This document shows, in pieces, positions 371-3,881 of a DNA stretch of 58,244 bases. The DNA is taken from contig JAHFFW010000016.1 of assembly GCA_023247725.1 (NCBI GenBank), positions 1 through 58,244 on the forward strand. Reading direction: 5' to 3'. A program made the translations under genes and the position numbers. The first letter of the stretch is position 1. Each line of letters begins with the position of its first letter. The stretch is from Candidatus Omnitrophota bacterium (GTDB taxonomy: Bacteria; Omnitrophota; Gorgyraeia; Zapsychrales; JAHFFX01). The notes under the pieces were generated by a model. The model was not told where the DNA came from and did no database searches. It saw nothing but the letters and a program-made list of their open reading frames with translations.

Positions 371-439
371 CTATAACGCATCCATCTGCCAGCCCCAAGT
401 CTGGATGAAAACTTTTTTCTTATCTTGTTGTGTTTCCAT
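371..439 (-). pseudogene. miaB: 5' fragment of a miaB-like methylthiotransferase gene (putative att junction)
   Basis: Manual translation METQQDKKKVFIQTWGWQMDAL*; matches the MiaB N-terminal motif KKx(F/Y)IxT(F/W/Y)GCQMN, with Cys replaced by Trp and similarity lost after QM. Confidence 0.6.
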
Positions 440-574
440 GTCTTATGATTTCCAGTCTAAGTGTCCAAAACTGTATGAACCGATGAATGTATACGACGGT
501 AAATTTTCTTAACTCTTTATCTCTCATACATTTGATTTGATTCTTGCCTTTTCAAAAAATATTAAATTTTTAGT

Positions 575-617
575 CGATTTTTCCATTTTAGGATGTCCAA
601 CTGTCTAAAACTGTAAA
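575..617 (-). repeat. Degenerate direct copy of the 3' end of the HTH gene (matches 1096-1139; shorter third copy at 462-475)
   Basis: CGATTTTTCCATTT-N13/14-TGTCTAAAACTRTAAA at 575-617 and 1096-1139; TGTCCAAAACTGTA at 462-475. Confidence 0.7.
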
Positions 618-628
618 GTAAATTTTCA

Positions 629-1081
629 TCAAATTTTATTCCACGGCCAGAGTAGATTGTCACGCAACTTTTGCTCAATATGTTTATAGTCAGTTGTTTT
701 TAAAAACCAAAGTTTTATTTCTTTGCCAGCACGAGCCTCTTTTAGGATTAATTTATTGACGCGACAGTTTGTTTCCTGACCATTGATAAAGCAATTTCTC
801 GGAGAGATCTGCCCGTAACCCATATTGTAGCGCGAGGAAAGATTTTCGCATTCTCCTACGTACTTACATTTTTTGTTGACTATAATTACATAAACGCCGG
901 ATTGCTCAATATCTACTGGGATGCGGAACTGGCAAAATCTTCCTGTGCCATATTTGTTTAATGCAATAGTTTTTCTATTTTTGTACCTGTTTTGTGGTTG
1001 AAGCTGAATAATCCTGCCATTGGTTTTCTTTTTAGGCTTTATTTTGTAGATCAAGACAAAATTGTAGCCGTTTATATTCAT
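629..1081 (-). CDS. GIY-YIG nuclease family protein
   Basis: SGVYVIIVNKKCKYVGECENLSSRY (GVY...YVG...R motif), C-terminal EQKL...PWN. Confidence 0.75.
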   Translation of the reverse strand: MNINGYNFVLIYKIKPKKKTNGRIIQLQPQNRYKNRKTIALNKYGTGRFCQFRIPVDIEQSGVYVIIVNKKCKYVGECENLSSRYNMGYGQISPRNCFINGQETNCRVNKLILKEARAGKEIKLWFLKTTDYKHIEQKLRDNLLWPWNKI

Positions 1082-1082
1082 C

Positions 1083-1497
1083 TTATACTTTCACCCGATT
1101 TTTCCATTTCATTAAGTTTTCAATGTCTAAAACTATAAAAACCGGATAACGCCGATAATCGCGTTTTGGCCTGACCCATCCCTTGTGAATCCAATAGTAC
1201 AATGTCTGCCGACGAACTCCCAATAACTGCGTGGCTTGCGTCAAGTTGTATCGCTTTTGTGATCTTTGAACAGCTTTGCGAATGATTTTTCTGTCGCATC
1301 CTTCAACCTGGCTTTCGATTTTCTTCTGATCCCGATCTCGTTTCTCTAACAGCCTTACAAATGTTTTCTTGTCTGCCTCAAACAGAATCTCTAAAACCTG
1401 CTCGACCCTTTGATATTCTTCACTTTTTTCGGGGTAAACGGCAATTATGCTTCCCTGTTTATCATGTAGAACCAGTTCTTTTTTTGAAATTGTTCAT
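1083..1497 (-). pseudogene. Helix-turn-helix (excisionase/MerR-like) DNA-binding protein with a +1 frameshift in an A7 run
   Basis: AAGGA RBS and ATG at 1497. Removing one A from the run at 1479-1485 gives a 137-aa ORF MNNFKKELVLHDKQG...RYNLTQATQLLGVRRQTLYYWIHKGWVRPKRDYRRYPVFIVLDIENLMKWKNRVKV ending at TAA 1083-1085. Missed by the ORF track. Confidence 0.75.
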
Positions 1498-1507
1498 AAG
1501 CATCCTT

Positions 1508-3271
1508 TCATTTTTTGTCATTTGGTTGGAAGCCAAGAATCAGATGGAGAGTCAGCCACAGTAAAAAAATACTTGAAGAATTGTTAATATCAGCGGAGGA
1601 CATTAAACCATGACATACCCGATTTCTTAAATTCGGGCCAGTTTTTTCAATCAGAAGAGATCTCATTTCCCAGAGTAAATCTTTGCCAAAAATTTTCTCT
1701 GCTTCAGGATCAGTTAAAAGCTGGTTCAAATCACGTTCCTGCTGCACTCCCTCGCGGACCGCGGTAATTTTTAATTTATTTGCGCCAAATATCAATCTTA
1801 CTGAATTTTCAATCTGTGGAACGATGAGGTGAGTGAACAGTAATAAATCACCTTCAAATCCGGCAATAATTGCCCGCTCATAAATATCTGCCCTATCCTT
1901 CGGCACGAATACGCTTGACGCTATAAATTCCTTTATACCATCTTTCCAAGAGTCGCTTGACTGGACAACTAAATCAATGCCCCGTTTTAGGGTAGTGCTT
2001 GCTGACAGACTTTGCCCCAGATTGTAACCCCGGACGGCGTGAGCTTTAATACTCTCTTCATAGTTATCTGTCATGCCCGGAATTGTGGCTGCCACATTGC
2101 CTTCTTCTGTAAATATTTGCGTGTTAAATAAACCCTGCAACGGGTGTTCCTTCAGCATTTTCTTTGCGGATTCTTCTTCATGCGCATACGAAAAGGGAGT
2201 AACCAAGATTGCAAATGCCTCAATCACCGCAATCCCCGTTTTGTTCCCGATTCCTTCATCTGCGATATTCAATAAAGGGGCAGCATCAATGAGCGGACTG
2301 GTAATCGCCTTCATTTGCCCAAGAGCCATTTTATTTGCTTCTTTTAATTCATGCACCAATTGTTCAGCCTTTGCACTATTCCCTGCCTCACGATAAGCAT
2401 AAATAGCTTTCTCAAGTCTGTGGGCTAAATTAAATCCATCACCGCCTCCAGGCGTCTTAAAAGACCTTGCTTCATCTTCCCAATGTTTGGCAAGAGCTAA
2501 TTTCGCCTGTTTTGCTTTTTCTGTTTGATTTGCTAGTTCATAACACTTTGCCGCTAATTTGTAATATTTTCGCGGAGCATCGCATCCAGGAGAAATTGGA
2601 AATCCCTTTGCAATAGCCACTGCTTTATCGCCCAAGTCATTCCAATCATCAGCAAGTTTATTTTCTATAATGAGTCCAAGTAATGTAGCCGGCCAATAAT
2701 CTTGCCTATCTGTGAAGCATTTTGTTCTTCCATCTTCAAAAAGCTGTAACAGTTTTTGTTTGATAATTTGCCGCTCTTGTGCTTTCTCTCCTAGCTCCAT
2801 TGCGATTTGGGTGCTTCTTTTGAGCCACTCACTTTTAGGCACCCATGTTTCATCATTATCCTCATCAACAGATTGCAAGTAAGCTTTTATTGTCCTTTGG
2901 GCATACAAAAAATTCTTTTTACGTATCCAGAGAACGTCACAGATTCTTGCGACAAAAGCGGGGTTATCTATTCCTTCAAGAGTTTCTTCTAATTGTGCTA
3001 ATTCCGCACTAGTTAAGTCTTCGGGTATAAGAGTTCTTCCTTGCGGTCCTGACATAAGTGGTCCAAAAGGTTGCCCTTTAGCAAACTGGAAATACATTGA
3101 GAAGACTCCCCATAATAGCCGCATGAATTTTTCTAATTCTTGATCTCCTGCCTTTTGGGCGGCGTCTTGTATTTGCCGGAATGCCGACAAGAAATCAGGC
3201 ATTTTCTGGTTTTTAACAGCCGATACAGCATCTTTGCAAGCTTCCAATAATCGTTTATCCATTGTAATCAT
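1508..3271 (-). CDS. DUF4209-type protein with C-terminal HEPN-like RxxxxH motif (putative defence effector)
   Basis: 587 aa, largely helical; C-terminal HLIVPQIENSVR...GPNLRNRVCHGL characteristic of DUF4209. Confidence 0.7.
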   Translation of the reverse strand: MITMDKRLLEACKDAVSAVKNQKMPDFLSAFRQIQDAAQKAGDQELEKFMRLLWGVFSMYFQFAKGQPFGPLMSGPQGRTLIPEDLTSAELAQLEETLEGIDNPAFVARICDVLWIRKKNFLYAQRTIKAYLQSVDEDNDETWVPKSEWLKRSTQIAMELGEKAQERQIIKQKLLQLFEDGRTKCFTDRQDYWPATLLGLIIENKLADDWNDLGDKAVAIAKGFPISPGCDAPRKYYKLAAKCYELANQTEKAKQAKLALAKHWEDEARSFKTPGGGDGFNLAHRLEKAIYAYREAGNSAKAEQLVHELKEANKMALGQMKAITSPLIDAAPLLNIADEGIGNKTGIAVIEAFAILVTPFSYAHEEESAKKMLKEHPLQGLFNTQIFTEEGNVAATIPGMTDNYEESIKAHAVRGYNLGQSLSASTTLKRGIDLVVQSSDSWKDGIKEFIASSVFVPKDRADIYERAIIAGFEGDLLLFTHLIVPQIENSVRLIFGANKLKITAVREGVQQERDLNQLLTDPEAEKIFGKDLLWEMRSLLIEKTGPNLRNRVCHGLMSSADINNSSSIFLLWLTLHLILGFQPNDKK

Positions 3272-3282
3272 TGAGTAGGGGA

Positions 3283-3720
3283 TTACTTTTCTTGCGCTTT
3301 GATATTCTCTTCTTTCAATTGAATATCCAGTAAGTCCAAATCTTTCTGTTTAATCCACAGATCCCTCCGCATTGCCAAGACAACATTTAAGAAATTATTT
3401 CGTGTTGGTGATTCAATAAAAATTTTTGCTGCCCGTATGACTTCTTTCGAGGCATAGAGCAACATTTCATGGTACTCTGCCTTTAAGTATTCCATTACGT
3501 CTTCCGCTGAGGCGATATCCGGCTGTCGACTAGAAAGATATTTGATGTTTTTGGGTTTTTAAAATACGTCCATGTACAAAAGCATGCTTTTGTATCGTTT
3601 CTGCTTTTGTTCCAATTTTTGAAACTCAATCTCCTTCGACTTGTTAAATAATGCGGTGATTATCCCCCCGATACCGATAATGCCAAGAAAGGAAAGTATG
3701 AGTTGAGTTATTGTTTCCAT
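3283..3720 (-). pseudogene. Membrane-anchored hypothetical protein with in-frame TAA
   Basis: ATG 3720 gives METITQLILSFLGIIGIGGIITALFNK (TM helix); TAA at 3559-3561; the same frame continues into the 70-aa ORF 3283..3495. Confidence 0.7.
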
Positions 3721-3830
3721 AGCGAAATTATGCAGAGCAGTTTTTATATATTTTTCTCACAACCCCTTCACTCCAAACCATTTATCTTCTTCAAAATCCC
3801 TAAAATCGTCGTACGGTACTTCACCAACGG

Positions 3831-3881
3831 TCAGCCATAGGTTTGCACAAAAACTTTTTTGCTCGGCGAATTTTGGATCGT
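3831..3881 (-). pseudogene. miaB: Second 5' fragment of a miaB-like gene (putative att junction)
   Basis: AAAGGAAAG RBS-like sequence, then ACG (possibly a decayed ATG) IQNSPSKKVFVQTYG and TGA exactly at the conserved Cys codon (3831-3833). Confidence 0.55.

Follow-up and report, generated by a model that had tools for sequence, protein, structure and literature searches.

The question raised by this locus is why two different beginnings of miaB, a housekeeping RNA-modification gene, should lie in the same orientation with 3.4 kb of other DNA between them and without the body of the gene behind either one. The DNA analysed here, referred to as the window, is a stretch of 58,244 nucleotides that forms the first 58 kb of contig C3 (GenBank JAHFFW010000016.1) in a Candidatus Omnitrophota genome of 52 contigs and 91% completeness, hereafter G000; the sequencing runs that hold this stretch carry the label groundwater metagenome. 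A preliminary description of the window, made from its letters alone, had proposed that a family of mobile elements targets the 5' end of miaB, that each element carries a replacement 5' end, and that successive insertions leave trains of cassettes separated by miaB stubs. Our comparison with relatives leads to a closely similar reading, to which we give a probability of about 0.8: window 3881 to 1, on the minus strand, is the native miaB locus and holds at least two tandem elements that arose by site-specific recombination at the TG of the first Cys codon of MiaB (within ..T-Y/W-G-C, immediately before QMN).

The two fragments, stub 1 and stub 2, are co-oriented on the minus strand at 439-371 and 3881-3831, and their translations read METQQDKKKVFIQTWGWQMDAL and ..IQNSPSKKVFVQTYG, each followed by a stop. 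As had been noticed from the sequence, both encode the MiaB N-terminal motif and both leave the consensus at the same base, the third position of the Cys codon, which is replaced by TGG in stub 1 (GGC TG-G) and by TGA in stub 2 (GGC TG-A); similarity to miaB stops there. A comparison of the stubs with random sequence had been called for, and we carried it out with a 10-residue hidden Markov model (HMM) built from the live MiaB N-termini of 20 relatives and limited to the part that stubs retain. The two window stubs ranked first and second (E 0.0013 and 0.0019) among 98,510 six-frame segments of the genome, and ranks 3-5 fell to three further stubs on contig C38. Both window fragments are confirmed as real, non-random MiaB N-terminal stubs.

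Live MiaB N-termini for comparison are MSKKIFIQTWGCQMNEYDSE in the relative G001 and MKVFVETYGCQMNEYDTE in the relative G003. Stub 2 resembles the native type (MKVFVETYGC in the live gene of G003, and QKVFVETYG followed by a stop in an orphan of G001), and the N-terminus type of stub 1, KKIFIQTWGC, also starts the live miaB of G001. The stubs form a 37-nt direct repeat (382-418 and 3824-3860) with only 73% identity and are therefore not a simple or recent duplication, in agreement with the preliminary description. A BNR/sialidase-like gene (76% identity) and a MoaD-like gene (65%) on the far side of stub 2 recur in unchanged order in G003, a member of the same family, where they lie some 1.8 kb upstream of an intact miaB (locus L040). 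On the basis of this partial synteny, stub 2 is read as the native miaB 5' end at the native locus.

A candidate for the enzyme that makes such junctions is found at miaB in relatives. In G018 and G019 a large serine recombinase (LSR) of 561-568 amino acids, with Resolvase, Recombinase and Zn_ribbon_recom domains in the G018 copy, is encoded directly ahead of a full miaB, in the same orientation, by a gene that overlaps the miaB 5' end. It is preceded by an excisionase-like helix-turn-helix (HTH) gene of 68-71 amino acids, a candidate directionality factor with a homologue in the cassette between the window stubs (cassette A), whose C-terminal domain aligns with it. At a threshold of E<=1e-60, 16 of the 151 genomes of the order hold an LSR homologue. 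In 14 of them the gene is the immediate upstream neighbour of miaB and shares its strand (one of the 14, in G011, is a pseudogene); in the other two it is on a contig apart from miaB. Among the seven other genomes of the window's own family none carries it.

A search with one genome per species yielded 40 LSR loci, including one in the complete genome of Ca. Velamenicoccus archaeovorus LiM. T[FY]GCQMN stands at the end of the LSR gene in 35 of them; of the remaining five, four end at a contig edge and one (L088) has room but no motif. The target sequence after the break falls into two classes, QMNEYDSE and QMNVRDSE. Close relatives of the LSR are almost all labelled Candidatus Omnitrophota, and its best named matches are CcrB and CcrC, with 197 and 177 bits against a cut-off of 900. 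These counts describe our sample, in which kin are not independent, and the comparisons rest on metagenome-assembled genomes (MAGs) except for two single-contig genomes, LiM (complete) and G062. The 5' end of miaB lies at or near a contig end in many relatives (for example G009, G013, G024 and G029; in G002 the gene is truncated), an observation that fits variable or repeated DNA at miaB breaking assemblies.

The position of the break is the same throughout. All tabulated MiaB-like junctions, from G000, from the loci of relatives and from 13 metagenome junctions, change partner after GGN-TG. Beyond the break, [C/T]CA[A/G]ATGAA follows in live genes and [A/G]CC.. or GCAGATGG.. in orphans. The third codon base differs already between the two classes (C/T in live genes, G/A in orphans), so that a crossover common to both can extend over TG, or leftward of it, and no further. 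GGC and GCC flank TG in the most frequent junction and form a short dyad. Serine integrases use a 2-bp crossover, and the break fits a crossover of this kind, with TG as the dinucleotide that would be cleaved. The alignment of junctions, which had been suggested as a means of defining an att core, gave a fixed break at TG and pointed to a 2-bp type of crossover in place of an extended core.

The open reading frame (ORF) of the LSR runs across this break (loci L061-L100; L033:3935-3965; L123:9710-11452). In 30 of the 35 loci its stop lies 8 nt past the break and is the TGA inside the host ATGAA that encodes Met-Asn of MiaB; in the other five our script chose the MiaB frame, and for one of these (G019) the coordinates give the same 8 nt. 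Where a donor stub joins an element arm, as we call the element sequence that begins at a break, the LSR ORF runs on. The extension amounts to about 12-20 codons in donor-arm/element-arm junctions; in L123 the protein has 581 amino acids and reads RTFGC, then KMAAML, across the junction, and the LSR of the outer element in LiM continues for some 20 codons past its donor stub. Because the ORF crosses the crossover site, free and integrated forms of an element encode different C-termini. L123 is a 17.3-kb IMG/VR contig with a terminase-small-like gene (by eye) and large ORFs of structural size; it could represent an unintegrated junction form, and a tandem junction would also fit. The element of G018 holds a type I restriction system and a 791-aa ORF that is primase-like by eye. 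Some members of the family are probably temperate phages.

Orphan stubs upstream of miaB are found in several relatives, as the preliminary description had predicted when it proposed to count them. The distal orphan of G018, which reads MSNKVYLKTFGW up to the break, lies about 18 kb from miaB, and that of G020 about 17 kb. In G062 (a single contig) two stubs mark tandem elements of 9.4 and 33 kb, the inner of which starts with a diverged copy of one arm type (type 2); G060 has four orphan stubs within 2.4 kb, and G015 has three orphans upstream of its live miaB. Cassettes of only 0.6 and 1.2 kb, with 1-3 small genes, stand between orphan and live miaB in G001 and G006. In G001 it is the live gene that has the donor-type N-terminus and the orphan that has the native type, showing that working genes can begin with a donor arm. 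LiM has a second LSR, with 49% identity to the first and 17 kb upstream of it, followed by SVYIRTIGW joined to PLSTL and a stop, that is, a donor stub and a type-1 arm; LiM therefore holds two complete LSR elements in tandem in a closed genome. No distal attL of the outer element was found within 80 kb with two motif patterns. Together with the position of the LSR at live miaB, these orphans and tandem arrays bear out the proposal of an element family that targets the miaB 5' end and leaves stub-separated trains.

Contig C27 of G003 mirrors the window: a native-type stub with a type-2 arm is followed by cargo, an HTH gene, a donor stub with a type-3 arm, a RelE/ParE pair, another HTH gene and a last donor stub. 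This last stub is fused to only about 25 miaB codons, and the real miaB of G003 is on another contig. Two miaB 5' fragments, at L114:3451-3474 in G001 and L035:8445-8633 in G003, keep the Cys codon and 15-25 further codons and look like unoccupied or truncated target sites within arrays or at their ends.

We scanned the 151 genomes for the type-2 arm using a 32-nt pattern with up to 3 mismatches and the reversed pattern as a control. The arm occurs in 9 genomes from five named families and the window's own (reversed control 0), in two to three copies in 5 of the 9, and is identical over 32 nt across genomes of different families; the window copy was missed by the scan owing to a deletion. It follows MiaB-like stubs in other genomes and on 11 metagenome contigs; an exact-pattern scan of the latter gave 13 junctions, 12 with a varied MiaB-like stub and one at a contig edge. 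Eight copies of a module made up of an HTH gene, a leader and a stub were found in 4 genomes from 3 families, and the copies in G000 and G003 flank unrelated cargo. In the groundwater runs the arms of the window also occur with other partners, the change of sequence falling exactly at the break points (loose ends 388, 394 and 3821), with a different stub before the type-3 arm at 394 in run X2, a different stub before the type-2 arm at 3821 in run X1, and different cargo behind the arms at 353, 361 and 3778. The run data are assembled contigs and show modular reuse, not excision. Three joints (419 to 1120, 527 to 1119 and 1330 to 3776) were set aside as evidence of excision, being probable paralogous C38 cassettes at 90% likeness.

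These observations suggest how the window was built. Complete members of the family are phage- or island-like elements of about 17-33 kb with the LSR at the end that abuts miaB. The same end encodes a new start and N-terminus of MiaB, by which the gene is rebuilt, and the old miaB 5' end would be left at the far end of the element as an orphan stub, now with TGG or TGA. The rebuilt junction, with its donor arm mimicking the native arm, should resemble the empty site, and a further element may then insert beside miaB and push the earlier one outward, giving trains separated by stubs. The LSR presumably makes the junctions, TG would be the crossover dinucleotide, and the arrays would grow by successive insertions. 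In the window, stub 2 would be the original 5' end, at which cassette A (3832-390, 3.4 kb) was inserted, and element B would begin at 389 and be cut by a repeat at 118. Cassette A, with its PDC-S39 candidate, HTH gene, endonuclease-like ORF and donor 5' end and with no recombinase, would either depend on an LSR in trans or be immobile now. The features of the region, in the direction of miaB transcription, are as follows.

7476-6385, minus strand: BNR/sialidase-like gene, native chromosomal flank.
5772-5476, minus strand: MoaD-like gene, native chromosomal flank.
5394-4585, minus strand: membrane protein gene, native flank region.
3974-4201, minus strand: 75-aa ORF with a signal-peptide-like start, directly upstream of stub 2; no family in Pfam.
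3881-3833, minus strand: stub 2, ..IQNSPSKKVFVQTYG then TG of the Cys codon; putative displaced native miaB 5' end and left half of an attL-like junction.
Between 3832 and 3831, minus strand: putative crossover point, where stub 2 ends and the type-2 arm starts.
3831-3744, minus strand: type-2 arm, which reads PLVQVPYDDFRDFEE once a 1-nt deletion of the window copy is corrected.
3720-3283, minus strand: two small ORFs of 53 and 70 aa in one frame, with TAA at 3561-3559 between them; the start of the first, of 53 aa, is membrane-like.
3271-1508, minus strand: 587-aa cargo protein, a candidate single-gene anti-phage defence protein.
1490-1083, minus strand: excisionase-like or MerR-like HTH gene; the frame is open from 1490 and the sole canonical start is TTG at 1244.
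1081-629, minus strand: 150-aa endonuclease-like ORF (PHROG 1111 'endonuclease', E 2.6e-5; GIY-YIG likeness by eye only).
527-440, minus strand: conserved leader upstream of donor stub 1.
439-390, minus strand: stub 1, METQQDKKKVFIQTWG then TG; putative replacement miaB 5' end borne by cassette A.
Between 390 and 389, minus strand: putative crossover point, where stub 1 ends and the type-3 arm starts.
389 to about 340, minus strand: type-3 arm of element B, reading WQMDAL, a stop, then DDNGENSE.
245-119, minus strand: 5' part of an element B cargo ORF, cut by the repeat at 118; toxin-like by eye only.
1-118: terminal part of a mobile repeat of 2.67 kb, high in copy number and with 23-nt subterminal repeats; it causes the contig break.

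The DNA between the stubs had been described as AT-richer, defence-like and without an integrase, and each point agrees with our data. GC content is 0.34-0.44 over 1-3800 and 0.47-0.54 from 4400 on. No recombinase gene was found between the stubs among the window ORFs or by recombinase family searches, no MiaB match (TIGR01574) was obtained at the locus, and no tRNA or RNA target was found within window 1-6000. The 587-aa protein is a full-length match to the PADLOC family PDC-S39 (E 1.8e-111, residues 12-579 on positions 18-597 of a profile of 615) and contains DUF7380 (E 7.9e-34) and DUF4209 (E 1.3e-16) domains; it is a candidate defence gene, in a family whose own defence activity has only candidate status. 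Searching metagenome loci and the loci of relatives with the cargo proteins (tblastn) gave no second copy of the PDC-S39 cassette. The 70-aa ORF and a 59-aa ORF match no family in Pfam, NCBIfam, PADLOC or PHROGs, and the 53-aa ORF matches none in PADLOC or PHROGs; the in-frame TAA at 3561-3559 could divide two genes or mark a pseudogene. GIY-YIG, Gp49-like, primase and terminase, where used of unscored ORFs, are labels by eye.

The HTH gene has a copy of the same family on C38, 99% identical, that matches HTH_17, MerR_1 and an excisionase domain. Within the cassette family it forms a conserved module, and it is possibly a recombination directionality factor. Direct repeats of some 80 nt (540-617 and 1061-1139) stand on either side of the 150-aa endonuclease-like ORF, which separates the HTH gene from the donor stub and is missing from the module copies on C38; the ORF looks like a separate small insertion. 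Window 527-383, which includes the conserved leader, is 92.5% identical to C38:76769-76914 and 76% identical to C38:72207-72386, and the leader probably carries expression signals for the restored miaB. The type-2 arm of the window is 84-86% identical to C38:69390-69499 and C38:72350-72435.

The type-3 arm also follows stubs in G003 (L035:10491) and G015 (L116:14167), and in G003 it leads to a RelE/ParE toxin (TIGR02683, E 1.4e-27). The toxin-antitoxin (TA) label that had been given to the DNA left of stub 1 did not hold up for the window itself: ORF 245-66 has no match in Pfam, NCBIfam, PADLOC or PHROGs, and the likeness is one of appearance. The insertion sequence (IS) end that had been seen there holds up: six other contig ends (including ends of C22, C26, C37, C44 and C50) repeat window 1-118 without a difference, and this DNA belongs to a high-copy repeat, a 2671-nt record with a depth of about 320 against about 25-30 in neighbouring DNA and with five 23-nt subterminal repeats (TGGTAAAGG..). 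The contig ends 370 nt beyond stub 1 because this repeat, at some ten times the local depth, sits there. No partner contig beyond the repeat was found from the target-site sequence at the repeat ends. A second, related type of repeat end occurs at seven other contig ends.

Three further stubs of G000 belong to a 17.9-kb island at C38:59088-76943 (loci L031 and L032), which lies between murA and trpG and contains four MiaB-stub junctions. Its parts, in order, are as follows.

Part 1: a 17-nt left-arm remnant and a type-1 arm (PMATI, a stop, then THDG).
Part 2: AbiEi/AbiEii, a type I restriction system and a 203-aa ORF.
Part 3: stub 3 and a type-2 arm.
Part 4: a 774-aa protein and an HTH gene.
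Part 5: stub 4 and a type-2 arm.
Part 6: an ORF of some 1250 aa (1180 aa on L031, running on into L032) and an HTH gene.
Part 7: stub 5, then 8 miaB-like codons, stopping just before trpG.

The copies of the module of HTH gene, leader and stub are 73-99% identical in protein and up to 92% in DNA, and the cargo is unrelated. All six family relatives compared (6 of 6) have murA next to trpG with no such ORF in between, and the C38 island is therefore an insertion at a site other than miaB. It looks like a translocated array segment that bears the first 27 nt of the miaB body.

G000 has two methylthiotransferase genes, one MtaB-like (window 31715-33031) and one RimO-like (C51), and miaA is present at C18:21480-22322. 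Among the other 30 relatives searched, miaB is full-length and over the cut-off in 24, N-terminally truncated at a contig end in one (G002), and not found in 5. Site-specific recombinases of other kinds in G000 were considered as the array enzyme and rejected. The only LSR of G000, on C42, adjoins tRNA genes and shares 24% identity with the miaB-type enzyme. The two PF00589 matches of the genome are tyrosine recombinases on C39 and C44, neither on the window contig, and the one on C44 apparently lies beside a tRNA gene. Two integrative elements were noted in passing: C44:643-2126, with a tyrosine integrase adjoining the apparent tRNA gene, and C42:1500-3500, with a 570-aa LSR adjoining tRNA genes and neighbours that are prophage-like by eye.

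Several findings weigh against the window being a miaB locus occupied by such elements. The body of miaB, which the preliminary description expected to the left of the window, was not found in the 91%-complete assembly (PF00919 and TIGR01574 searches; no TIGR01574 match over the cut-off), the contig stopping in the repeat; therefore the element nearest miaB, and miaB itself, are unseen. At 91% completeness the absence of miaB from the organism does not follow from its absence from the assembly. Synteny with G003 is partial, in that the two genes nearest stub 2 (the membrane protein gene and the 75-aa ORF) have no counterpart there. The second array, on C38, lies at a non-miaB site, is not predicted by a simple model of insertion at miaB, and holds at its ends only 17 nt of a left arm and 8 miaB codons; its translocation could be linked to the missing miaB. 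No LSR of the miaB-linked family was found in G000, none of the 9 genomes with the canonical type-2 arm is among the 16 with an LSR, and in the 5 genomes examined for this (G003, G009, G034, G048 and G076) the contigs that bear arrays hold no LSR gene. The longer miaB 5' fragments of G003 (C27) and G001 are not made by crossover alone. The run data being assembled, neither a circle nor an empty site is directly seen. Serine integrases normally recombine only attP with attB, and insertion into an already rebuilt junction is therefore an assumption.

Much of this agrees with a second account, in which complete LSR elements once inserted at miaB, then lost the recombinase and most of their genes, and nothing moves now. 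We regard it as a serious possibility, if one that falls short of even odds. No LSR of the family is present in G000 or on any array contig examined; on the metagenome locus L109, remnants of LSR C-termini stand before donor stubs and read into a type-2 arm, and the LSR beside miaB in G011 has decayed to a pseudogene. The window bears signs of decay of its own, which also count against present activity at this site: stub 2 has lost its start codon (no ATG, GTG or TTG is in frame), the type-2 arm has its 1-nt deletion, and the HTH gene is without a canonical full-length start. However, the eight module copies in 4 genomes of 3 families, with unrelated cargo where assembled, suggest a cassette design that was propagated and not one left by decay. 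No LSR remnant is detectable in the cassettes of G000, the type-2 arm has stayed identical over 32 nt between families, and arms occur with differing partners within one community.

These last points also allow a more active picture in addition to tandem insertion at miaB. The miaB 5' end might act as a serine-recombinase counterpart of the integron platform, at which recombinase-less cassettes of 0.6-4 kb, each delimited by a donor MiaB N-terminus and a conserved arm and many of them with a single defence or toxin-antitoxin module, are captured, stacked and passed among lineages by LSRs supplied in trans from phages or islands that use this site too; as a general account of the arrays we find this doubtful. 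Equally tentative, as part of the same picture, is the suggestion from the reading frames that the switch of the LSR C-terminus might be a built-in sensor of the integration state.

An origin of the stubs that needs no site-specific recombinase is highly improbable, whether by transposon activity or by duplication, homologous recombination or gene conversion between the 5' ends of miaB genes. Such events would account for the fragments that extend past the crossover (62 aa in G003:C27, L114:3451 in G001, and stub 5 on C38), and a high-copy transposable repeat does lie at the window edge and an array at a non-miaB site on C38. They would not be expected to place the break at one dinucleotide in all tabulated junctions of many genomes, where a dedicated recombinase gene overlaps the exact break, and the window stubs are only 73% identical. 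Chimeric joins from assembly or binning might be suspected in a MAG of 52 contigs whose window starts in a repeat and whose relatives often have miaB at contig ends, but we can practically dismiss them, since the same architecture recurs in independent assemblies, in a complete genome and in the single contig of G062, and since contigs of run X2 cover window 368-4502 with 0 differences and overlap across both junctions. There is scarcely any more room for the short ORFs being functional small genes, such as leader peptides or regulators (for instance a Trp-containing leader ahead of trpG on C38), even though stub 5 lies directly upstream of trpG and stubs 1 and 4 hold two Trp codons: murA and trpG adjoin without such an ORF in 6 of 6 relatives, the peptides match the MiaB N-terminus of the same family, in several stubs the break brings a stop codon, and stub 2 is without a start.

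Read as tandem insertions at the first Cys codon of miaB, the locus can be compared with known systems. The nearest described case that we found is the Bcep22-like phage JC1. According to the passages of the JC1 study consulted, a serine recombinase integrates the phage at the 5' end of rimO, the phage contributes a fresh ATG, and related prophages have an integrase gene that overlaps their target (PMC9144972). Common to both systems are the serine recombinase gene beside attP, a target site at the start of a methylthiotransferase gene, and an ATG with N-terminal residues, brought by the element, that keeps the gene open (same passages, PMC9144972). The two target genes, rimO and miaB, are paralogues. 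Unlike the case described in those passages, the target here is miaB, with the two methylthiotransferase classes QMNEYDSE and QMNVRDSE, and the hosts are Omnitrophota; the overlap region of JC1 is 18 bp, whereas only GGN-TG is common here and the next base diverges; and the same passages describe neither arrays nor recombinase-less cassettes for JC1 (PMC9144972). The preliminary description had drawn its analogy from the dusA-associated islands, which, according to the parts of that study consulted, use a tyrosine recombinase at the 5' end of a tRNA-modification gene that the element restores, and that study also notes the MiaB-like rimO as a target in Polaromonas (PMC4482086). The analogy stands as regards the outcome and fails as regards the enzyme: the miaB-linked recombinase of relatives is an LSR, and no tyrosine integrase of the dusA-island clade was found at the locus.

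The LSR-type element is recognised by a recombinase with Resolvase, Recombinase and zinc-ribbon domains beside an att site, which we find in relatives and not in the window or the rest of G000, and by a very short crossover core at a fixed position, here GGN-TG with a different next base. Staphylococcal cassette chromosome (SCC) elements use the CcrA/B/C serine recombinases, insert at the 3' end of rlmH, form tandem composites separated by short repeats, and include recombinase-less units thought to be moved in trans. CcrB and CcrC are the best named matches of our LSR, and the elements share one site in a housekeeping RNA-modification gene, tandem composites and, possibly, units moved in trans. 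They differ in that the CcrB (197) and CcrC (177) scores are far from 900 bits, the site is the 5' end of miaB and not the 3' end of rlmH, the N-terminus is rebuilt, and the LSR ORF spans the crossover. Integrons resemble the arrays in their ordered trains of small cassettes (0.6-4 kb here) with one or few genes, a conserved recombination site and one platform. Unlike in integrons, there is no IntI and no tyrosine recombinase at or near the arrays, no attC-type hairpin was seen, though no search aimed at one was made, the boundaries are MiaB-stub/arm junctions, the platform is a housekeeping gene, and the recombinase travels with the complete elements. In some temperate mycobacteriophages attP lies inside a phage gene, and integration by a tyrosine integrase truncates the C-terminus of its product, the repressor. 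The likeness lies in a recombination site within a gene of the element and in free and integrated forms that differ at the C-terminus; the difference is that the gene here is the LSR itself, as opposed to a repressor gene served by a tyrosine integrase.

Literature searches brought up nothing on integration specific to miaB, and nothing on Omnitrophota serine recombinases, in line with the earlier remark that no miaB-specific system was known to its author, although supplementary tables of large recombinase or island surveys may list miaB. The class of mechanism and its outcome are already known; the target, the host phylum, the recombinase clade, the cassette arrays and the recombinase ORF completed by the host are new.

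As an annotation marker, a MiaB-like stub that ends in TGG or TGA points to accessory or defence islands, and the hotspot would explain why the contigs of these MAGs so frequently end at miaB. With its conserved natural target of 40-50 bp already known, such an LSR would be a ready tool candidate for a phylum that is largely uncultured and has no genetic tools, and in which miaB would be a previously undescribed, phylum-wide integration hotspot. Recombinase-less cassettes at a housekeeping gene and an integrase stop codon supplied by the host are both uncommon, and bear on the exchange of defence genes and on the regulation of serine integrases. For the organism of the window itself, hosting such arrays may have come at a cost, namely the loss of miaB.

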